From sequence record PZ445514.1: 64,000 bases of DNA; one strand, written 5' to 3'. Made by a program: the position numbers and the translations under genes. Positions 5,493 through 29,793 of this stretch are shown here, one piece after another. Source of the DNA: a phage. How positions within the stretch are numbered: the stretch's first letter is position 1; each line of letters opens with the position of its first letter. The notes below the pieces were generated by a model. It was not told the DNA's origin. It did not search any database and was given only the letters and a program-made list of their open reading frames with translations.

Positions 5493-5659
5493 GCCAGAAT
5501 CTCCAGCCAGAAAGCGCACGGGAACACTTTGATGATTGAATCTTTACCCGGTTCGGCAGTTCTTTTTCCGTAGGGTAGGTAGAAATACCCTCCTGCAGAT
5601 TCGAACACAGCCCCTTCGGTTGTATCTATCACAGCTAGAATTAAGATTTTAGTCTCCAC
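5489..5659 (-). CDS. hypothetical small protein (56 aa, GTG start)
   Basis: GTG preceded by GAGAGGAGAG; stop overlaps start of next gene; not in ORF track. Confidence 0.35.
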   Translation of the reverse strand: METKILILAVIDTTEGAVFESAGGYFYLPYGKRTAEPGKDSIIKVFPCAFWLEILA

Positions 5660-5713
5660 AGTGCTCTCCTCTCTTAGTTGTTGTGGAAACTATATCACCT
5701 CAGAAGATGGTCG

Positions 5714-17563: not shown

Positions 17564-17592
17564 GCAAAAAGCCCCACCCTTTCGGGCAGGGC
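17564..17592 (-). terminator. rho-independent terminator
   Basis: Near-identical copy of the 7384-7413 hairpin followed by TTTTT on the minus strand; downstream of gene ending at 17599. Confidence 0.6.
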
Positions 17593-17598
17593 CTAGTG

Positions 17599-18081
17599 TT
17601 AAACCCGGATACCTATTGTATACTCGGTGGATACCAATGTCAAATCTAAATTTAAAATTTCTTGCATCTCATAATATGCGTCCAGGGTTAGATACATTTC
17701 CCCATCCTTTTCTGCATACTTGTCCAAGTGCTTAAGGCATTTCGGATAACTATCGAGTGCAGCTTTCAGACACTCAAATTCTGTGCTGTTAATGAATCCT
17801 TCCATCTTAGCTACCCGTTCTGGAGTAACGATAGCACTGTAGTGAGATTTAGCTTCCTGAATGCAATGGGTCCAAGCATCAACTTTCTCTTCGAAAAGCC
17901 CGAAGAACTTCTTTTTGGTGAGCTTCAGATTCTTTAAGTGCTTAAGCACTCGGTTGCCGATCACAGCCACATCACGAAACTTAAGGATCACTTTGTCGAT
18001 ATCCTCGCGGCCTATTTTCACAAAGCAAGCCTCGCACATTTCAGGAGTGGCATAGCCTACTTTCCACATAAAATCTGACAT
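17599..18081 (-). CDS. hypothetical protein
   Basis: 160-aa ORF with AAGGAGAG upstream. Confidence 0.6.
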   Translation of the reverse strand: MSDFMWKVGYATPEMCEACFVKIGREDIDKVILKFRDVAVIGNRVLKHLKNLKLTKKKFFGLFEEKVDAWTHCIQEAKSHYSAIVTPERVAKMEGFINSTEFECLKAALDSYPKCLKHLDKYAEKDGEMYLTLDAYYEMQEILNLDLTLVSTEYTIGIRV

Positions 18082-20536: not shown

Positions 20537-21903
20537 ACGTCCCCCTCTTCGGCTCTGGTTTCAAAATCTTTCCTGACAATTTTGTCTAAGTCAGGGAATG
20601 TTGTATTGTAAAACTCTACGACTCGCGGGTCAACAATAATGTCAACTTCTCTTAGTGGACGCAACAAGTTTATTCCTTGTATTGTCTTAACCCGACTCAA
20701 AGCAACATACGTCATCCCAGGAGAGAAAGCTCCGTTCTTTCCAAGGTCCAGGTTGTAACAATCTAGCGTAAGTCCTTGACTTTTATGAGATGTTACGGCA
20801 TACCCAGATTTCAGAGGAAGTTGCCTGTATGACCCAATCACTACCCTCTCTATAAACTTCTCCATCTTCCTTTCTGCAATGTTGTATCTCTGAGATGGCT
20901 TATACTCGTTATTTTCCCACAACCTCTGCTCTATGTCAACCTGTGTTCCATCTTCAAGCTCTACCACCACCGCCTTGTTCTTAAATTTAACAATTGTGGC
21001 ACGTGTTCCGTTAACATAATAAGGTACTTTGTGCGTCGGGTCAACATCGTTGGCGGTTATCATAACTTTCATGCCAATTTTCAACTTCATCTCCTGCTCA
21101 ACTGGCAGGGTGGAGGGAAACTTACCCTTCATTTCACCAGTGTATACCTTCTCTGGGGCGTTGATGGCATCATAGAACCTTCTGTTCACTTCCTCTGCTT
21201 GTTTGTTGGTGGCGCAAATTGTGAGAGCGTCTGTTGGTACACCGCCTTTGTAACAGCGAGCATTAAGTTCTGCTACAACCTCTTTTATGCGACGACCCTC
21301 ACGAACACAGTTGAGCATTGTGGCAAATCGAATAGACTCCTGTCGGAACTGGTCTATTAGGGCTATGTTGTGAAGGTCCAGCTCTTTCCAAGATTCGGTA
21401 TAGCAACATAGGTCTGTGTGGTAGAAGTTGAAGTAGGCCTCCTTCTCCATAGAAGAGACAACAGGAGGTGCCTGGTAAAAATCGCCAAACAATATGACCT
21501 GTATGCCTCCGAAAGGTTTGTCATTTTTTCGAAGGAAGCGGAGTTTCCTATCCATCTCTATAAACTTATCAGCACGGATCATAGAGATTTCATCGATAAT
21601 TAGGATGGTAAATGCCTTGCTTTTCAAAGGCTTTGCTGTTTTTGCCCTTATTGCAGTCCAGTCAGACTCCATGCTCACACCTGCTGCAAGATCGAAGGTT
21701 CGGTGTGCTGTTGCTCCATTAACGTTTAAAGCGGCTACCCCTGTCGGGGCAACCGTTATGCAAGAGTCTCCATACATTGACTGGATCATGTTGATGAGGT
21801 ACGTCTTCCCACAACCTGCGGGTCCTGAAACGAAGACATTCTCCCCACTCATGATTGCAACAAGGGCAGCATCTGTGCCTACATCATACTGCCCTTTTTC
21901 CAT
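20533..21903 (-). CDS. SF1 DNA helicase, Dda/RecD-like
   Basis: 456 aa; Walker A GPAGCGKT; C-terminal TSHKSQG and ALSRVK motifs typical of RecD/Dda helicases. Confidence 0.85.
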   Translation of the reverse strand: MEKGQYDVGTDAALVAIMSGENVFVSGPAGCGKTYLINMIQSMYGDSCITVAPTGVAALNVNGATAHRTFDLAAGVSMESDWTAIRAKTAKPLKSKAFTILIIDEISMIRADKFIEMDRKLRFLRKNDKPFGGIQVILFGDFYQAPPVVSSMEKEAYFNFYHTDLCCYTESWKELDLHNIALIDQFRQESIRFATMLNCVREGRRIKEVVAELNARCYKGGVPTDALTICATNKQAEEVNRRFYDAINAPEKVYTGEMKGKFPSTLPVEQEMKLKIGMKVMITANDVDPTHKVPYYVNGTRATIVKFKNKAVVVELEDGTQVDIEQRLWENNEYKPSQRYNIAERKMEKFIERVVIGSYRQLPLKSGYAVTSHKSQGLTLDCYNLDLGKNGAFSPGMTYVALSRVKTIQGINLLRPLREVDIIVDPRVVEFYNTTFPDLDKIVRKDFETRAEEGDV

Positions 21904-23108
21904 TACGCCTCCTCGTAAAGAATGTCGATAGTGTTACCGTCTCGGTCAACCACGTATTCAATCGGGTCTCCGTCCTTGCGTGCTTCCGGAGCTACCACAA
22001 TCTCATAGCGGCATGCACGGCACTTAGCGCTATTGTGTTGGTATGGCACACTAACCACATCTGCAGGGTCAACCATGACAGTCATTACAGTGCCGTAGCT
22101 CTTTGCATACTCCTTGCTGGCGCAGTGTAAGCCATAGGAGCACGCAGCTTCAGGATCATCCTCTACAAAGTTACGAGGCATGGATACAAAAGCACCCTGG
22201 TATTGTGGAACTTTACCACTGTGCCAATCCACCCACTTGCTGCCGTTAAACTGAACCCCTTTGTAGCAAATGATTCGACCATCTTCTGCAATCTGGATAT
22301 CGTTGGCCTGCATAAAATCGTAGAGCATGTTTACAGATTTTGCAGAAGGATTGCGTAGCAGGCGAACGAGGAATTTCACATAGCGGTCATCCAGTGTTCC
22401 GTCTGCATAGTCTTTCTCAATTTTCTTTGCAATGGTGGATCGCATCTCTACACCGTAGTAGTAGAGCTTACCATCTTTCATGATCAGGTTGTCTGCAAGT
22501 GTGGTGAACTCATTCTTGCGTTCCAGCCAGACAAGGATTTCACCAATTGCCTCATCATATTCCTGAACAGAGATATGGTCGAAGACTTTCTGGTAAACTT
22601 CCTCACTTTCGCTGCGGCGAATTTCAAAAATGCCTTCGTTGCAGGTGATCTGGAGGAGTTCCCCACAAATAACTACTAAAGGCTCGATGCTTCGAGTCTG
22701 TTGCTGAGACACACTGCTCACCACCTCCAGCACCGGGTCTTTGACTTCTACTAAAGGTTCTTCTGACTTGATTGCCACCCCAGTGAACCCCACACCGTGA
22801 ACAACACACAGTGGGTATACCACGCCCCAACGTTTAACGGAACCTTCGCCTAAGTCTAAGATCATGGCGTACTTACCATTATCTTCCAGCCCATATCGAA
22901 ATAGACGGGCCTCTTCACGGGTTTCAAAATCCTCACGGGTGTAGCAGACGCTGTCACGGTCAGGATCGAACAACTCTGGGGCACCAACTGCCAGTGTCCA
23001 GGTTGTGTCGCCTTTCTCAATGGCACATGTGAAACCCTTCTTCTCAAGTTCTGCACGGCGGTCGCGTGCTTCTTTACGAGTTTTGAAGTGTTCGTAGATG
23101 AAAATCAT
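21903..23108 (-). CDS. hypothetical protein, possible rIIB-like partner of GHKL ATPase
   Basis: Start set to ATG at 23108 after AAGGAGA; rIIB assignment is positional inference only. Confidence 0.55.
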   Translation of the reverse strand: MIFIYEHFKTRKEARDRRAELEKKGFTCAIEKGDTTWTLAVGAPELFDPDRDSVCYTREDFETREEARLFRYGLEDNGKYAMILDLGEGSVKRWGVVYPLCVVHGVGFTGVAIKSEEPLVEVKDPVLEVVSSVSQQQTRSIEPLVVICGELLQITCNEGIFEIRRSESEEVYQKVFDHISVQEYDEAIGEILVWLERKNEFTTLADNLIMKDGKLYYYGVEMRSTIAKKIEKDYADGTLDDRYVKFLVRLLRNPSAKSVNMLYDFMQANDIQIAEDGRIICYKGVQFNGSKWVDWHSGKVPQYQGAFVSMPRNFVEDDPEAACSYGLHCASKEYAKSYGTVMTVMVDPADVVSVPYQHNSAKCRACRYEIVVAPEARKDGDPIEYVVDRDGNTIDILYEEA

Positions 23109-23118
23109 AACTGTCTCC

Positions 23119-25101
23119 TTATTTGGTGTTATTCTTTGTATCAATCAGCTCACGGTATTCAATCATAGCAGGGGTGTCCCAATATTTCAAGCCTACATGC
23201 TTCAAAAGTGGGTATTTCTTTTCCAATCTCGCAATATAGGCCTTCCCGCATTTAACTCGGTTGGCGATTAAGATTTTGGCACGATGATTTAGCTCACTGT
23301 GCTTCCACGTGGTGTTACCTTCCCACTTGTGGAAATGTGGCCGATAATTTCCAAAATCTTGCATGGGAATAATTTTCCCTAATTGTCTATACAGGCTGTC
23401 ATAAGAAGTCTCATTTGCTGCACGGGTCAGTAAGAATTTCCAAGCATCCTCTTTCAACAGGTGCTCCACATTCTTCTCTGTAACATACTGGCAATCAGGA
23501 TCAGTCCAAAGCAGACGAGATTCAGATACCAGATACAGATCTTCACCTTCAGGAATCTGAAGTGCCGCACGTACACGGTCATAATCTTGCTGGTAGATGT
23601 TACTCATCTGCCCCAGCCAACAACTTCCACGTTGGATATCACCCTCATAAGGGATGCAGTGTTTAATCTTCCGGAACTCTGCCTTAGTAATACGCTCACG
23701 GCGGAAGTAACCATCCTTCTCAAGTTTTTTAACCCAATAGCCTGGCTCATAACGAGTTTTTGTTTCACCTTTCTTGACAGGTCGGCGAGGGAGCTCTGAT
23801 AACAATTTGACCGTATCTGCAAAGAACGGGTGGTGTGCCGCCTCTTTAAACTCTTTCACCAGATCAGTGTTCCGGCAATAGAAAACGTTGCGTCCGGTGA
23901 TCTCGCTTAAGTAGTTACACTTATTTCGGTTATATTTGCCGTCTCCGTCGTTAAATACTAAATAAACTCCCCGTAAGAATTCTACCTTTCCGTAACAAGC
24001 GTAACCTATGCGGCCTTTATTTAAGCCGCCAGCGAAGATCTCACAGTCCCCCAAATTTCCTAGGCCTGTCTCTTCCCATCGTTCCCACATAAAATTCTTA
24101 CCGAAGATGTGCCCGAACACTCCACTGTTCTTCATCATCTCGCGTGCTTCTGAGGATGTTTTTGCTGTCTCCAATTCCGCAACAACTTCTGCCCCACGTA
24201 GACGGATACCCTCTTTGACAAAAGCCTCCAGACGCTCTTGGAATCCACCATCGTCGTGACCCTCTATAGTCCATTCACGCCCTGGGTTAATATTGCAATC
24301 CCCGATAGGGATCTCTACACAGATTGCAGGGTAGTCTGTTAATGTCTCCAAGAACTTAGAACGGTAAGGTTGGTGACCCATTACCACGCGACTCTCGTCA
24401 GAGCTGGTATAGCCCTTTAGGATGGTCATTTTCCAACCATCTTTCTCGTAGTGATACTGCGCCTCAACCTTGTCACCTTCCAGCATCTTACTGGTCATAG
24501 GGTCGGTAACGGTAAACGGAAACTTTGCATAGCGTAGGCATGATGCAATAGCAGTGCGATATTTCAGAACATGCTCTTTCTTAACATGGAACTGAACTTT
24601 TACCCCATTGTGCTCTTCGGTCTTCCGCTCGCGGATCTTGGTAACGTTTGGGATACCTTGATCCAAGAACAATAGATATGTGCTTTCAACACCATTGTGC
24701 ACACTGATCACATCGAAAGTGTCCACCATGCTGAACGGAGCCTTCGAACCAACACCTTTATTACCTACCAGAGCGTTGCTGTTGCGCTTGGTTGACTCCC
24801 CGAGGTTCATGAAAGTGTTGCGGACCATCTCTTCTGACATGCCTAACCCAACGTCCTGCACAAAGAAGTACGGTTCAAGATCTGTAGGAGAGTGAATGAT
24901 GATCGGCACATCACCCCGTCCAGACTCAACATGGGAGTCCACAGCATTAAAGATTGGTTCACGGCAGCTTGCCAACACCTTATCTTCGTAAATCCCTTTA
25001 ATGATTAGCCCAAAAGTCTCTTTGTTCAGAGAAATTGAGCCCCTGGTGACCTCCATATTTCCAGTTAGCACCGCTTTAGTTTCATTACTGTTTACAATCA
25101 T
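23119..25101 (-). CDS. GHKL/Bergerat-fold ATPase domain protein, rIIA-like
   Basis: 660 aa; N-terminal DVGLGM and GNKGVGSKA match G1/G2 boxes of HATPase_c; AAGGAG upstream. Confidence 0.55.
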   Translation of the reverse strand: MIVNSNETKAVLTGNMEVTRGSISLNKETFGLIIKGIYEDKVLASCREPIFNAVDSHVESGRGDVPIIIHSPTDLEPYFFVQDVGLGMSEEMVRNTFMNLGESTKRNSNALVGNKGVGSKAPFSMVDTFDVISVHNGVESTYLLFLDQGIPNVTKIRERKTEEHNGVKVQFHVKKEHVLKYRTAIASCLRYAKFPFTVTDPMTSKMLEGDKVEAQYHYEKDGWKMTILKGYTSSDESRVVMGHQPYRSKFLETLTDYPAICVEIPIGDCNINPGREWTIEGHDDGGFQERLEAFVKEGIRLRGAEVVAELETAKTSSEAREMMKNSGVFGHIFGKNFMWERWEETGLGNLGDCEIFAGGLNKGRIGYACYGKVEFLRGVYLVFNDGDGKYNRNKCNYLSEITGRNVFYCRNTDLVKEFKEAAHHPFFADTVKLLSELPRRPVKKGETKTRYEPGYWVKKLEKDGYFRRERITKAEFRKIKHCIPYEGDIQRGSCWLGQMSNIYQQDYDRVRAALQIPEGEDLYLVSESRLLWTDPDCQYVTEKNVEHLLKEDAWKFLLTRAANETSYDSLYRQLGKIIPMQDFGNYRPHFHKWEGNTTWKHSELNHRAKILIANRVKCGKAYIARLEKKYPLLKHVGLKYWDTPAMIEYRELIDTKNNTK

Positions 25102-25598
25102 TTATTGCGCTCCTTGTAGTAGATATGACTCCCGAATTGAGCTGTCCTCTGCATCTTTTTTGCCCATTTCGGTCGTACTTTGGTTGTATGGTAGTGTGTT
25201 GCTCCACCTGTTATATCCATAGCCATGTATGCAACATGGTTGTTATTATAGACCTTTAGAAGCATCTTTGCAAGACTTTTAGCGTGATCCCATGAATCTT
25301 TTTCTGTCACCTTAAAAGTTTTGCCGTGGTTTGTCCACGAAAACTGGTTAGGTTGGTAGACAATCTTTCTTATAGTGTCTGGGTATTTGGGGTGAGATTT
25401 CCTGTTTAGTGTGGCAAACCCAGATGCCAGCATACCCATCGTGCCATCTCCTCTGGCCTCCCTGTAGATATTGCATGCCAGAATGTTTTCCTTAGTATCC
25501 GAGGGCTTGCAAGTATGATATACTTTTTGTTTTGGTGCTGCAACAACAGGCAGCGATAAAAATGCGCTCAAAATAATAGCAAAGATCTTAATTTTCAC
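25098..25598 (-). CDS. secreted cell-wall hydrolase, SleB-like
   Basis: 166 aa; GTG start after GGAG; signal peptide ending VVAAP; NIYREARG motif of SleB/Hydrolase_2 family. Confidence 0.65.
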   Translation of the reverse strand: MKIKIFAIILSAFLSLPVVAAPKQKVYHTCKPSDTKENILACNIYREARGDGTMGMLASGFATLNRKSHPKYPDTIRKIVYQPNQFSWTNHGKTFKVTEKDSWDHAKSLAKMLLKVYNNNHVAYMAMDITGGATHYHTTKVRPKWAKKMQRTAQFGSHIYYKERNK

Positions 25599-25611
25599 AA
25601 TAACTCCAAAT

Positions 25612-25635
25612 AGAAAATCCCCGCCGAAGCGGGGG
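25612..25635 (-). terminator. rho-independent terminator
   Basis: Minus strand CCCCCGC-TTCG-GCGGGG followed by ATTTTCTATTT; downstream of gene ending at 25647. Confidence 0.55.
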
Positions 25636-25646
25636 TGTCTTAGAAA

Positions 25647-26027
25647 TTAATCGTAGTGTGCCAAAATCTCTCCATCGTTGCAAGTTCCCTCTACAAAGTT
25701 ATGAAGATTCATGCACTCATCTTGATAGAAGAATTTACCGCTTTTCAGCCGTAGGCCAAACAACTCCGCATCTCCACGATGGCAAGCCTCTACAAGTTCA
25801 TAGATTTCATACGGCAACTCTCCGTCGTCATGGAAGAACCCAGCCTTATCGTTGACATAGATGAAGAAATAATCACTGCTGTCGCAAGCGTCTAGTATTT
25901 CAAACCAGATTTCATCTACATCTTTTTCTCGGATATCGATCACGCAAGTGGAGCTGCATTCGTACTCCTTCTCCGGCTCTTCGGTCAATACTACCAGGTA
26001 GTTTCCCCGCTTACCTACTTTAGCCAT
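25647..26027 (-). CDS. hypothetical acidic protein
   Basis: 126-aa ORF with GAGGAGG upstream. Confidence 0.55.
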   Translation of the reverse strand: MAKVGKRGNYLVVLTEEPEKEYECSSTCVIDIREKDVDEIWFEILDACDSSDYFFIYVNDKAGFFHDDGELPYEIYELVEACHRGDAELFGLRLKSGKFFYQDECMNLHNFVEGTCNDGEILAHYD

Positions 26028-26036
26028 ACAACCTCC

Positions 26037-27221
26037 TCAAGCTTTAGCCAAAATGGCGCTAAACTCTTCACCAAACTCTTTTACAATCTTCATCAGGTTT
26101 GGGTATGCTTTAATCAGCTGAGCAACAATCTTGTCACGCCCTTTACCGATAAGCAAGGCATTTCCTAAGGCATTAGGTTTCATCATCGCCATAAAGACTG
26201 AGAATACAAAATCTCGGTTCTCGTCCTTGAAGTTTTCCCAAAGGAAATCGAGGAAGTTTGCCACGCAGCTGACAAGATCTTCGTCTGAGATACTTGCATT
26301 TTCCATCATATTACGAATAGCGATACAACCTTCAGATCCAAGAATCCACAAAATGTCTGGCTGCTTAGGACCTACGTATTCTTTGCAACCACCTGCCATA
26401 ATCCGACCGATTTCAGGTAAATTGCGTTTCTTGGTGTGGTATGTCCAGATCTCTACCGCTGCAGTGTGACCAATAGCACCTTGCAGAAGAACACGGGCCA
26501 TAGCGTCAGAAATAATACCGCTGTCAAAATCGTGCAAGATGTCAGATGCAGCAACCCAAGATCGCGGTGTGGCAAAAGATGGACAATTAATCTCAGCCAT
26601 AGCCTCATAATTATCGATAGCTGATGGAACTCTTTTCAGATACCCAATTACAGAGGAGTGCACCCCATTGAGGAATGCGTAGTCCTCAATAAACACCTCT
26701 GCATTGCTTGTAACCTCTACAATGATAAAGCGGTTAGCCAGAGGAGCTTCGAGCGCCGAAAGAACAGCACCATCTGTAGAACGGTTACCCGCAGCCACAA
26801 AAACAGAGCCTTTAGGGAATGCATAGGTGCCGCACTTGTGGTCGAGCATAATCTGCATTGCAACCTTTTGCAGATAGTTATCTGCATGAGTAAGCTCATC
26901 CAGAAAGATAATTCCACTCCAGTTCGGATCTGCAGGCCAAAATTCTGGAATTGCAAACACTGTACGTGTAGTTCCATCAGCTTCTACAGGGATAGGTAGC
27001 CCAGATAAGTCGGCAGGATCTTTATCTGACAGCCGCACGTCAACCAGGTTGTCATCTCGCTCACCGAACATATTATCGGCGATCTGCTTCATCACCTGGC
27101 TCTTTCCCACGCCCATTGGTCCTAAAATCAGGACAGATCGGTTATGACGCTGGGCAAACTGAATGATAGCTGGCAACTCACGGACAGTGATTTGACCACT
27201 TTCAAATACGTTTCTTGACAT
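26037..27221 (-). CDS. AAA+ ATPase, MoxR/CobS-like
   Basis: 394 aa; Walker A LGPMGVGKS, Walker B IIFLDELTHA, sensor-1-like FVAAGN. Confidence 0.8.
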   Translation of the reverse strand: MSRNVFESGQITVRELPAIIQFAQRHNRSVLILGPMGVGKSQVMKQIADNMFGERDDNLVDVRLSDKDPADLSGLPIPVEADGTTRTVFAIPEFWPADPNWSGIIFLDELTHADNYLQKVAMQIMLDHKCGTYAFPKGSVFVAAGNRSTDGAVLSALEAPLANRFIIVEVTSNAEVFIEDYAFLNGVHSSVIGYLKRVPSAIDNYEAMAEINCPSFATPRSWVAASDILHDFDSGIISDAMARVLLQGAIGHTAAVEIWTYHTKKRNLPEIGRIMAGGCKEYVGPKQPDILWILGSEGCIAIRNMMENASISDEDLVSCVANFLDFLWENFKDENRDFVFSVFMAMMKPNALGNALLIGKGRDKIVAQLIKAYPNLMKIVKEFGEEFSAILAKA

Positions 27222-27514
27222 TAGTAAAAGTCCTCTACTTGTGTGTAAGTGTTTTCGAAGTTTTCCAAAACAGATGTCACATCGGATCTGTCAATATCGT
27301 ACACAACTTCCCAGTTGTATGCAACCCTTTCTGCTGTTGCTTCTTCAGGGCTTAGTCGCCTGCTGGGGTGAAAGAATGCTGGAGTGCACCTTTTTAGGTA
27401 TCTTCCGGGTTTCCCGTAACAATATTTGTGGATAACTTTGTCAAAATTTAACTCTTTTTCTGCACAAAGTTCGTGTTTCTGGTATAACATGTTTATTACT
27501 CTTCTAAGCGGCAT
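27221..27514 (-). CDS. hypothetical protein
   Basis: Start ambiguous between 27526 (GTG), 27514 and 27490. Confidence 0.4.
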   Translation of the reverse strand: MPLRRVINMLYQKHELCAEKELNFDKVIHKYCYGKPGRYLKRCTPAFFHPSRRLSPEEATAERVAYNWEVVYDIDRSDVTSVLENFENTYTQVEDFY

Positions 27515-27529
27515 CCCTGCCACCACCTA

Positions 27530-27910
27530 CTAGAATGCAGTTCGAATCCAGACAAGGTTCTTATCTGCCCAATCATAGAGGCAAGTCATTGCGCTATTGA
27601 ATTGCTCACACGGAGGATAATCTTCTTCCATCTGGCGCATAGCGGAGCCTTGTGGGTAAAGCTCCCGTGCTGCAAGCCACGCATCGTAGTCATCCACGGT
27701 ATCGAAGTAGTATACAACATCCTCCAACTCAGGATCGAACTTTGAATTATCAGGATCCAGTTGTTCAGGGAACTTGGAGCGTAACTTGCCAGCCACAATG
27801 CTTGCCAACTCGCTAACATGCTTATTGTCCCACTCTACTAGTTTCCCGTCTTCAGCGATGCGTCCTAACCACTGATCATGAAGGTCAACTGTTGTCTTCC
27901 ATCGGGCCAT
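27530..27910 (-). CDS. hypothetical protein
   Basis: ATG at 27910 after GAGGTGGA; ORF-track start is TTG. Confidence 0.55.
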   Translation of the reverse strand: MARWKTTVDLHDQWLGRIAEDGKLVEWDNKHVSELASIVAGKLRSKFPEQLDPDNSKFDPELEDVVYYFDTVDDYDAWLAARELYPQGSAMRQMEEDYPPCEQFNSAMTCLYDWADKNLVWIRTAF

Positions 27911-27912
27911 TA

Positions 27913-28170
27913 TCAATCCACCTCTTCTTCTCGTTGTAGTTCAAGATACCCGTAGGTCTGGATATCTTCAAGAGTGTGGAACTCCCCATCTGCCGCTAAA
28001 GCACGAACAACTTGGCACAAAACCTTATGAGGAACTTCATCCAGACCCAGATTCAGTGCAGGGAACACCTTATCTAAGTCAACAAAATAAACGAACTGTA
28101 GCTCACCAGCTTCAAAAGGCGTATCTTCAATAAACATCTTCTCGGCATTAGTCAAAATCTGCACTTTCAT
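27913..28170 (-). CDS. hypothetical protein
   Basis: 85-aa ORF with GAGGAGG upstream. Confidence 0.55.
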   Translation of the reverse strand: MKVQILTNAEKMFIEDTPFEAGELQFVYFVDLDKVFPALNLGLDEVPHKVLCQVVRALAADGEFHTLEDIQTYGYLELQREEEVD

Positions 28171-29714: not shown

Positions 29715-29793
29715 GAGTAAGTGCTCCTATGTTAGTTTTCTTTCGAATGGGTGCACTATATCGGAGATTTAGCGTAAAGTCAACACGTTTTTG

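Follow-up and report, generated by a model that had tools for sequence, protein, structure and literature searches.

The closest described counterpart of the gene considered here is gene 2 of the E. coli phage rV5, whose product was already annotated as a "cell wall hydrolase" by Kropinski et al. in 2013; the gene, its Pfam domain and the terminator upstream of it were all published at that time (PMC3606486). The rV5 genome also encodes a lysin, gp89 (PF00959), and a holin candidate with two TMDs, gp129, both outside the region analysed here, and gp2 is not among the lysis genes listed in that paper, nor is a signal peptide or a role discussed for it (PMC3606486). A signal peptide was published in 2020 for the homologue in phage CB7, CB7_83, and the same authors found the SleB-like gene in all Vequintavirinae genera and noted that expressing CB7_83 was toxic to E. 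coli ("data not shown") (PMC7344957). Literature searches for a functional study of a phage SleB-like hydrolase gave annotation-level statements only.

The stretch of 64,000 nucleotides analysed here (PZ445514.1; hereafter the window) belongs to a Vequintavirus (rV5-like) phage and contains the counterpart of rV5 gene 2 and slur16 gp061 (Table 1). The gene differs from the slur16 copy by six synonymous and no non-synonymous changes, the computed molecular weight (19053) and pI (10.0) of its product are those listed for rV5 gp2, and the protein is found at 95% identity or more in 116 phage records. New here are the family-wide export signals, a hairpin located 18-21 nt upstream of the gene in five lineages, and frequent non-ATG starts.

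Table 1. Features of the hydrolase locus and its surroundings, in coordinates of the window
Feature	Position	Strand	Basis or remark
SleB-like (Hydrolase_2) cell wall hydrolase ORF	25098..25598, including stop codon	(-)	166 aa
GTG start and Sec-type signal peptide, MKIKIFAIILSAFLSLPVVA	25539..25598	(-)	codons 1-20; composition, -3/-1 rule
Hydrolase Shine-Dalgarno sequence, GGAG	25604..25607	(-)	5 nt 5' of GTG
Hydrolase_2 / SleB catalytic domain	25116..25448	(-)	Pfam residues 51-161; PDB alignment from residue 38
Glu47, putative catalytic acid, motif Y-R-E-A-R-G	25458..25460	(-)	aligned with Bacillus SleB Y-G-E-S-R-G
Cys30 and Cys42 (H-x-C-K ... L-A-C-N)	25473..25511	(-)	homologue alignment
Intrinsic terminator-like hairpin, CCCCGC-TTCG-GCGGGG, then ATTTTCTATTT	25608..25634	(-)	rV5 t003
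ATGA overlap of hydrolase TGA with rIIA ATG	25098..25101	(-)	sequence; likewise annotated in slur16
rIIA homologue, 660 aa	23119..25101	(-)	immediately downstream, same transcript
rIIB homologue	21903..23108	(-)	start from slur16 annotation
126-aa acidic ORF (rV5 gp3, PHROG 12370)	25647..26027	(-)	last gene before terminator
Sigma-70-type promoter, TTGACT-17-TATAGT (rV5 P010)	29755..29783	(-)	nearest strong upstream promoter
Next strong same-strand terminator downstream (rV5 t232)	17569..17594	(-)	about 7.5 kb on

Gene, catalytic domain and export signal

The original prediction placed a SleB-like hydrolase with a GTG start at this locus, and the ORF was recovered exactly there, preceded by GGAG. 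The protein had also been described as the only recognisable peptidoglycan hydrolase in the window, which agrees with the PHROG-annotated slur16 genome, where no other is named in the corresponding part; the slur16 endolysin and spanins gave no tblastn match in the window. The domain assignment is likewise upheld by profile, fold and active-site motif. The PF07486 Hydrolase_2 profile matches over positions 2-100 of 100 with 70.4 bits (E=2e-19; the curated gathering cut-off is 27 bits), and a sequence comparison aligns the protein with the SleB catalytic domain (4F55, E=2.5e-6). When an AF2 model of the hydrolase (pLDDT 88.4) was searched with Foldseek, only 4F55 and 4FET were returned, with a probability of 1.0 and target TM-scores of 0.72-0.78. 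The Glu of YGESRGE in both structures, presumably the catalytic residue of SleB, is aligned to Glu47, which is nearly invariant across the homologue alignment. Cys30 and Cys42, which may form a disulfide in the periplasm, are kept in the Vequintavirinae and Stephanstirmvirinae homologues.

The signal peptide (residues 1-20) is followed by a short linker (residues 21-37). Pfam gives Hydrolase_2 alone, the N-terminal peptidoglycan-binding domain being absent, and the SleB equivalog profile TIGR02869 scores 48.3 bits (cut-off 236.5), with coverage limited to the C-terminal catalytic portion (profile positions 83-201). Judged by this score and the lack of the N-terminal domain, the protein would not be a bona fide spore cortex-lytic enzyme SleB.

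The N-terminus, MKIKIFAIILSAFLSLPVVA/APK, contains two Lys and then a 16-residue hydrophobic core with a mean Kyte-Doolittle value of 2.57 (62% L/I/V/F/M, 31% G/A/S/T, no Gly). A Pro at -4 and V-x-A at -3/-1 precede the predicted signal peptidase I cut between A20 and A21 (VVA/AP). The signal peptide was called by composition and the -3/-1 rule rather than by SignalP, and by that rule the charged n-region, the core and the cut site bear out the cleavable-looking signal peptide of the original prediction. A word-indexed homologue search returned 10 proteins only, and an exhaustive search of representatives was needed to show the family. Signal-like N-termini are present in all nine of the divergent phage homologues compared (those of the window, Hena1, CR9, KB57, VivaForever, ETEC-TG, T5-like JLBYU40, Mendera and PAK_P4), whose signal sequences are mutually unrelated, and in 132 of the 147 Met-starting representatives among the top 150 of the hydrolase family. 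The Vequintavirinae homologues all end the signal in A-x-A-type sites (AMA/T, ALA/K and VLA/K), and some metagenomic homologues have a lipobox in place of such a cleavage site, which points to ordinary export routes.

Transcription unit and upstream hairpin

Upstream of the hydrolase gene lie a MoxR-like ATPase gene and the 126-aa ORF; downstream, rIIA is followed by rIIB and a helicase gene. The stem-loop proper of the hairpin (25634..25619), to which a T-run is joined, stops 21 nt short of the start codon. On the 3' side the gene is joined to rIIA through the ATGA overlap, with no terminator between them, and an AAGGAG belonging to rIIA lies 8 nt ahead of its start, within the 3' end of the hydrolase gene. 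Thus, the description of the gene as isolated by terminators holds for the single hairpin upstream and fails for the 3' side. The description of it as lying between replication genes fits these neighbours only loosely, and the accompanying statement that it lies outside a lysis cassette stands, as neither a cassette nor a late promoter motif was seen around the gene. No sigma-70 promoter was found between the terminator and the hydrolase gene; the closest one, P010, is 4 kb away on the upstream side, and transcripts from it would have to read through the terminator to reach the hydrolase. A TTGCAA-17-TATAAT sequence, a candidate promoter, is located inside the hydrolase gene at 25273..25245. 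The unit, which runs from the hydrolase through rIIA, rIIB and the helicase to further genes, is likely ended by t232.

Terminator hairpins with differing stem sequences are found 18-21 nt before the start codon in the window, Hena1, CR9, KB57 and PAK_P4, and a similar hairpin is located upstream of the gene in the metagenomic relative L014. The hairpins were identified by a scan of each locus, with a background of 0.2-0.4 such sites per kb. An RNAalifold analysis of the five upstream regions was discarded because MAFFT misaligned hairpins of unequal loop length, rendering the covariation meaningless. GTG or TTG starts are used in five of the nine homologues (plus L014) compared with 10 of 109 slur16 genes. 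The upstream 126-aa ORF does not travel with the hydrolase in other phages. A SPOR-domain match in rIIB was considered as a link to wall binding and rejected, being weak and absent from the homologues.

Possible functions of the putatively exported hydrolase

The original prediction offered a choice between a Sec-exported endolysin and a hydrolase with a non-lytic role, and the part common to both, an exported muralytic enzyme, is well supported by domain, fold, motif and signal peptide. It also stated that no holin or spanin is adjacent, which is correct in that no TMD ORF flanks the hydrolase in the window. With an export signal and no such neighbours, the hydrolase does not appear from its sequence to be a canonical holin-dependent endolysin. 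As counter-evidence, a separate lysis cassette together with dispensability of this gene had been named; of these, separate lysis genes were found outside the window in near-identical genomes, namely an endolysin and spanins, together with the rV5 holin candidate. The slur16 genome has a signal-less lysozyme-type endolysin, gp191 (YP_009177530), and Rz/Rz1 spanins, gp122/123. LysECP26, which was purified and is lytic in vitro, was aligned in its paper with slur16 gp191 (both are 156 aa). The slur16 endolysin gene also sits among DNA-metabolism genes, and the genomic location of the two enzymes therefore gives no ground for telling them apart. The second endolysin is a PF00959 protein in Phapecoctavirus and an M15 peptidase in CB7 and Septuagintavirus, and a T5-like phage has a lysozyme and a holin in addition to the SleB-like gene.

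Since near-identical phages possess a separate cytoplasmic endolysin, a holin candidate and a spanin pair, the hydrolase is probably not the main endolysin. The reading favoured here, with slightly better than even confidence, is that it acts as a weakly expressed, exported accessory lytic transglycosylase. The pre-protein would be exported to the periplasm via Sec and most likely cut by signal peptidase I after Ala20, giving a predicted mature protein of about 17 kDa that is very basic (pI about 10) and consists of a single SleB/Hydrolase_2-type domain. The mature enzyme is most likely a lytic transglycosylase that would cleave the glycan strands of peptidoglycan using Glu47. As the gene is the first after a partial terminator, in a unit that also contains rIIA, rIIB, helicase and polymerase genes, and has a weak GTG start, small amounts would probably be made from the early or middle phase onward. 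From the periplasmic side the enzyme may loosen or remodel the wall in an accessory role, conditioning the sacculus and possibly speeding or securing final lysis. Against this reading, an active exported wall hydrolase should endanger the cell if made early, and control through its amount, the membrane potential or its disulfide state has therefore to be assumed.

Transcripts of gp151, the distant homologue in PAK_P3, are seen at 3.5 min and again at 13 min, without differential expression; compared with the adjacent upstream gene, the density of reads is reduced about 7-fold early and 2-fold late. The PAK_P3 authors proposed gp151 as a cause of wall degradation in the course of infection. Counting against the accessory reading, identity is only about 35% for this homologue, and its N-terminus resembles a signal anchor.

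A genuine Sec-dependent endolysin, either a second one or the ancestral core enzyme, is a doubtful but serious alternative. Such an enzyme would be exported in advance, remain harmless in the energised envelope and be unleashed upon depolarisation by a holin or pinholin; Lys44 of Oenococcus phage fOg44 is reportedly exported in advance and set free on holin-driven collapse of the potential. The placement of a signal peptide before a muralytic domain fits this alternative, as do the linkage to rIIA and rIIB, genes historically tied to lysis timing, and the occurrence of the hydrolase gene throughout the Vequintavirinae genera, among which the type of the other endolysin differs. The CR3 homologue is "implicated in host lysis" in the literature, although this is an annotation-level claim. 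That the SleB-like gene is kept when the other endolysin is exchanged may just as well indicate that its product is the core lysis enzyme.

The same alternative draws on a small membrane protein of 51-77 aa encoded directly 3' of the hydrolase in Hena1, KB57, L014 and CB7. Two TMDs are present in the Hena1, L014 and CB7 proteins, whereas that of KB57 (51 aa) has a single clear TMD and a less pronounced hydrophobic segment; the CB7 authors considered theirs a class II holin candidate (PMC7344957). The hydrolase and two-TMD ORF of the sister genera resemble an endolysin-holin pair, an observation that favours a lysis role and runs against an accessory one. However, the window has no small membrane ORF, the hydrolase abutting rIIA, and the ORFs of the sister genera match no recognised holin family. 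In CR9 this place is taken by a 61-aa ORF that lacks a TMD. A homologue of the Hena1 two-TMD ORF was not found in the window, and a search across all phage records returned Hena1 alone, so that a relocated partner was not identified. The small ORFs were also considered as relatives of the rV5 holin candidate (slur16 gp153) and rejected, having no similarity to it and no PHROG function. The separate signal-less endolysin, proven lytic, and the spanins of the same genomes also argue against a Sec-dependent endolysin, as does the absence of a late promoter motif and a lysis cassette around the gene.

A more speculative and rather unlikely proposal joins the hydrolase, rIIA/rIIB and the two-TMD protein of the sister genera, which Vequintavirus would have lost or relocated, into a single conserved envelope module transcribed through a terminator of fixed position, in which the hydrolase would be periplasmic early and gated by membrane energisation. 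If this were true, a holin-independent, potential-sensing hydrolase would set lysis timing and perhaps also the outcome of host abortive-infection membrane attacks that are countered by the rII proteins.

Slightly less probable still is a role unconnected with lysis, as an auxiliary metabolic or competition factor acting in muropeptide recycling or changing the wall against superinfection or host envelope defences. PAK_P3 infection raises the levels of cell-wall precursors, which the authors link to gp151, and gp151 is expressed both early and late. Gram-negative SleB homologues act in wall remodelling, and loss of SleB in Zymomonas alters growth, shape and cross-linking. However, this evidence is purely correlative. 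The auxiliary and the accessory transglycosylase readings overlap, only the proposed benefit differing.

A SAR endolysin, whose uncleaved N-terminal segment would tether the inactive enzyme to the inner membrane until depolarisation, is very improbable: a hydrophobic segment directly precedes the muralytic domain, the cores of the Hena1 and CR9 homologues are rich in Ala, Ser and Thr (56-63% G/A/S/T) and the conserved Cys pair near the active-site helix recalls the disulfide control of P1 Lyz, but the window segment is short and strongly hydrophobic, with Pro and V-x-A at the cleavage site, and the homologues have A-x-A-type sites (all Vequintavirinae) or a lipobox (some metagenomic ones). A virion lysin was rejected since packaging is inconsistent with a signal peptide and Table S3 of the rV5 paper gives gp2 no MS-evidence label as a structural protein.

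Many large, virulent phages infecting Gram-negative hosts (rV5-like, phi92/Phapecoctavirus-like, T5-like and PAK_P-like) keep a small exported SleB-type hydrolase besides an ordinary endolysin. If the hydrolase prepares or sets off lysis from the periplasmic side, it bears on lysis timing in therapeutic phages and would also represent a naturally secreted, very basic wall-cleaving enzyme for Gram-negative walls. As things stand these findings matter little, the gene, domain and terminator having been catalogued in 2013 and the signal peptide of a relative in 2020.

Comparison with known systems

The Sec-exported and SAR endolysins (Lys44 of fOg44, Lyz of P1 and R21 of phage 21) reach the wall without a holin hole. 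Each is the sole endolysin of its own phage, belongs to another enzyme family and is encoded in a cassette with a holin or pinholin. In contrast, the window hydrolase has a second endolysin (in relatives), no cassette, and a signal of the cleavable rather than the SAR type. Bacillus SleB (4F55, 4FET) shares the catalytic-domain fold and the Y-x-E-[AS]-R-G motif with the window hydrolase at 21-24% identity, but it has an N-terminal peptidoglycan-binding domain that the window hydrolase lacks and acts on the spore cortex (muramic lactam), a substrate absent in E. coli.

Among phage proteins, ORF81 of T5-like AKFV33 and the gp151 proteins of PAK_P3/PAK_P4-like phages are likewise small Hydrolase_2 proteins with an N-terminal export or anchor signal. 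They are 35-40% identical to the window hydrolase, are encoded among early or nucleotide-metabolism genes with no linkage to rII, and coexist with a different endolysin and a holin. In PAK_P4 a terminator precedes the gene just as in the window, but the N-terminus is signal-anchor-like, whereas the T5-like gene starts with ATG and lacks a hairpin upstream. The homologues in CB7 (CB7_83), Certrevirus, Henunavirus and Mydovirus likewise combine a SleB-like domain with a signal peptide (PMC7344957). Those of CR9, Hena1 and KB57 are about 50% identical to the window hydrolase and have the same upstream hairpin. Unlike the window, CB7 lacks rIIA/rIIB, and CB7, Hena1 and KB57 have a small membrane ORF downstream of the hydrolase where the window has none. 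The nearest match is rV5 gp2, which equals the window hydrolase in length (166 aa), mass (19.05 kDa), pI (10.0) and Pfam domain. Like slur16 gp061, it is encoded in the same place upstream of rIIA, with the 4-nt overlap and the same terminator sequence (t003), and nothing of substance distinguishes it from the window hydrolase.

Identity and fold of the hydrolase

The phage is a Vequintavirus (rV5-like), and its SleB-like hydrolase gene is rV5 gene 2, a 'cell wall hydrolase' of 166 aa, 19,052 Da and pI 10.0 carrying PF07486 (Table S3, PMC3606486); the values computed here are 19,053 Da and pI 10.0. Many E. coli phage genomes match the 6.1 kb round the gene at 96-98% identity, and the protein recurs at 95% identity or more in at least 116 phage records. 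Compared with the copy in slur16, a near-identical PHROG-annotated genome, there are six synonymous and no non-synonymous differences. Sixteen records named 'Campylobacter phage' (e.g. MG065646, 137 kb, host C. jejuni) are ~96% identical to window 21900-28000, a sign that phages in this deposit may be mislabelled or contaminants.

A Pfam profile search places PF07486 (Hydrolase_2) at residues 51-161 (E=2e-19; 70 bits, cut-off 27 bits), and the assigned PHROGs family, 938, is labelled 'endolysin'. The only solved structures with a sequence match are Bacillus SleB catalytic domains, 4F55 (E=2.5e-6) and 4FET, whose Y-G-E-S-R-G aligns with Y-R-E-A-R-G of the hydrolase. An AlphaFold2 model built with ten homologues as input is confident (mean pLDDT 88.4), and a Foldseek search of the PDB with it returned SleB domains only (probability 1.0, target TM-score 0.72-0.78). 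The protein is very probably a SleB-type wall hydrolase that is exported and catalytically competent; judging from its family, it would act as a lytic transglycosylase. An orthologue of spore SleB is ruled out: the hydrolase reaches 48 bits on the equivalog profile, where the cut-off is 236 bits, and the wall-binding domain is missing from its N-terminus.

Predicted export

The N-terminus reads MKIKIFAIILSAFLSLPVVA/APKQ, the slash marking the predicted cut. Two lysines accompany a hydrophobic core of 16 residues (62% L/I/V/F/M and no Gly; mean Kyte-Doolittle 2.57). At the site, position -4 is Pro and positions -3 and -1 are Val and Ala; an alternative cut one residue further on is blocked by Pro22. 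Segment composition and cleavage motif disfavour a SAR-type anchor. Signal peptides with A-x-A-like sites occur in the homologues of Hena1, CR9 and KB57 (phages of sister genera), VivaForever, ETEC-TG, a T5-like phage and Mendera, while the N-terminus of the PAK_P4 homologue is signal-anchor-like. The feature is thus kept across homologues although the signal sequence itself has diverged, making predicted export a family trait. An exhaustive search gave 11,334 representatives at E<=1e-3; among the best 150, 132 of the 147 that start with Met have an N-terminal hydrophobic segment. Some homologues carry a lipobox in place of the signal peptidase I site, so one catalytic domain appears to reach the envelope by different export routes. 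For the homologue of Pectobacterium phage CB7 (CB7_83), a signal peptide and toxicity upon expression in E. coli have already been reported (PMC7344957).

A lipoprotein-type signal (…STASC/D) marks one subgroup (metagenomic homologues P0006, P0007 and P0009; locus L017), whose context resembles a phage or mobile element (DUF932, ADP-ribosylglycohydrolase).

Transcriptional context

Upstream of the hydrolase lie a MoxR-like ATPase gene and then a 126-aa acidic ORF without assigned function; downstream are rIIA, rIIB, a helicase gene and further replication genes. The 48-nt gap that separates the hydrolase from the 126-aa ORF holds CCCCGCTTCGGCGGGG then ATTTTCTATTT, the hairpin of rV5 terminator t003 (reported free energy -16 kcal/mol; PMC3606486). 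The original prediction, that the gene is isolated by terminators, therefore holds for the upstream side but fails at the 3' side, where the stop codon overlaps the rIIA start; there is no terminator there, and rIIA's own AAGGAG sits inside the hydrolase 3' end. Since P010 is the nearest consensus promoter upstream, the hydrolase would most simply be expressed by read-through of t003, sharing a transcript with rIIA and rIIB.

Features of the hydrolase locus and its relatives
Feature	Coordinates	Strand	Remarks
Hydrolase ORF	25098..25598	-	166 aa, GTG start; GGAG 5 nt 5' of start
Hydrolase TGA/rIIA ATG overlap	25098-25101	-	ATGA
Promoter-like site	25245-25273	-	TTGCAA-17-TATAAT; within hydrolase ORF
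126-aa ORF	25647-26027	-	rV5 gp3, PHROG 12370
rV5 P010	29783..29755	-	TTGACT-17-TATAGT; nearest consensus promoter 5' of hydrolase; rV5 promoter list
rIIB ORF	21903-23108		
SPOR match in rIIB	22983-23087	-	N-terminus
rV5 P231 and t232	17569-17643	-	TTGACA-17-TACAAT; 11-bp hairpin
Next strong same-strand terminator	17594..17569	-	
Hena1 small ORF			77 aa, two TMDs; between hydrolase and rIIA
KB57 (L003) small ORF	5536-5691		51 aa, hydrophobic, MKKFLVIFVCITPLCVILS...; unannotated; between hydrolase and rIIA
L014 small ORF			76 aa, two TMDs, charged C-terminus; between hydrolase and rIIA

A terminator-like hairpin ends 18-21 nt 5' of the hydrolase start in the window, Hena1, CR9, KB57 and PAK_P4, with stems differing in sequence; the background rate of such hairpins, taken from the sense strand at the same loci, is 0.2-0.4 per kb. 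In L014, a metagenomic relative, the hairpin ends ~17 nt from the start and has a poor T-tail, and in Stephanstirmvirinae copies it is followed by the gene's own TTGCAA-17-TA(C/T)A(A/C)T promoter. GTG or TTG starts are found in five of nine homologues and in L014, as against 10 of 109 annotated slur16 genes, the lineages being related rather than independent events. Upstream hairpin and non-ATG start are both consistent with selection that keeps expression low for an exported enzyme which could be dangerous.

Several further features of the region were observed. The sigma-70-like site inside the hydrolase ORF (10/12 matches), ~145 nt 5' of the rIIA start, might serve rIIA as a promoter of its own; it is not among the promoters listed for rV5, and the region has no more sites resembling promoters than chance would give. 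P231 (11/12 matches) lies ~20 nt 5' of the strong same-strand t232 and would therefore fire straight into that hairpin. The 126-aa ORF is reported to resemble T5.083 (PMC3606486); though T5-like phages carry a SleB-like hydrolase too, neither the T5-like locus examined nor the other loci have the two genes side by side. The N-terminus of rIIB weakly matches the Pfam SPOR domain, which binds peptidoglycan glycan strands (19.3 bits for the whole protein, 22.6 for an N-terminal fragment, cut-off 21; half of the profile covered). The match is missing from the Hena1 and KB57 rIIB homologues, no export signal is visible, and the resemblance is probably a chance one to an RNP-like fold.

Role of the hydrolase and comparison with relatives

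An accessory role is somewhat favoured, because a complete ordinary lysis set lies elsewhere in the genome. In rV5 gp89 (PF00959) is described as an 'obvious lysin', and gp129 is a holin candidate with two TMDs (PMC3606486). slur16 encodes a signal-less endolysin of 156 aa, gp191 (YP_009177530), and an Rz/Rz1-type spanin pair adjoining the terminase gene. The enzyme LysECP26 was aligned with YP_009177530 in the paper describing it and, once purified, lyses Gram-negative cells whose outer membrane has been permeabilised. None of these other lysis genes is in the window by tblastn, and no second peptidoglycan hydrolase is annotated in the matching slur16 region. Elsewhere, the endolysins paired with a SleB-like gene are, by lineage, T5 lysozyme with holin, PF00959 or M15 peptidases. 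The upstream terminator, weak start codon and rII/replication transcription unit also favour an accessory role, as does expression of a distant homologue throughout infection: published RNA-seq counts for PAK_P3 gp151 show transcription at 3.5 and 13 min without significant differential expression. Its read density, computed from those counts and gene lengths, is ~7-fold (early) and ~2-fold (late) below that of the gene just upstream. The PAK_P3 authors suggested that gp151 degrades the wall during infection.

Literature searches turned up no work on the function of a SleB-like hydrolase from any phage. The gene, domain and terminator (in rV5) and the signal peptide (in the CB7 homologue) are already published, and the finding itself is ordinary; what is added here is the corrected terminator claim and operon structure and some comparative regularities.

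The main rival, a Sec-type endolysin under the control of membrane potential, is a tentative possibility that draws on strict conservation of the hydrolase across the subfamily and on small 2-TMD ORFs directly after it in sister genera. The order hydrolase, small membrane ORF, rIIA, rIIB, helicase is found in three relatives, Hena1, KB57 and L014. In KB57 this order spans the ends of the linear record, with the small ORF at the record end, and that ORF matches PHROG 24442 (no assigned function). CB7 differs in that rII genes are absent and the hydrolase is accompanied by a 65-aa ORF with two TMDs, named a 'class II holin candidate'. Unlike all four, the window lineage has no small membrane ORF beside the hydrolase.
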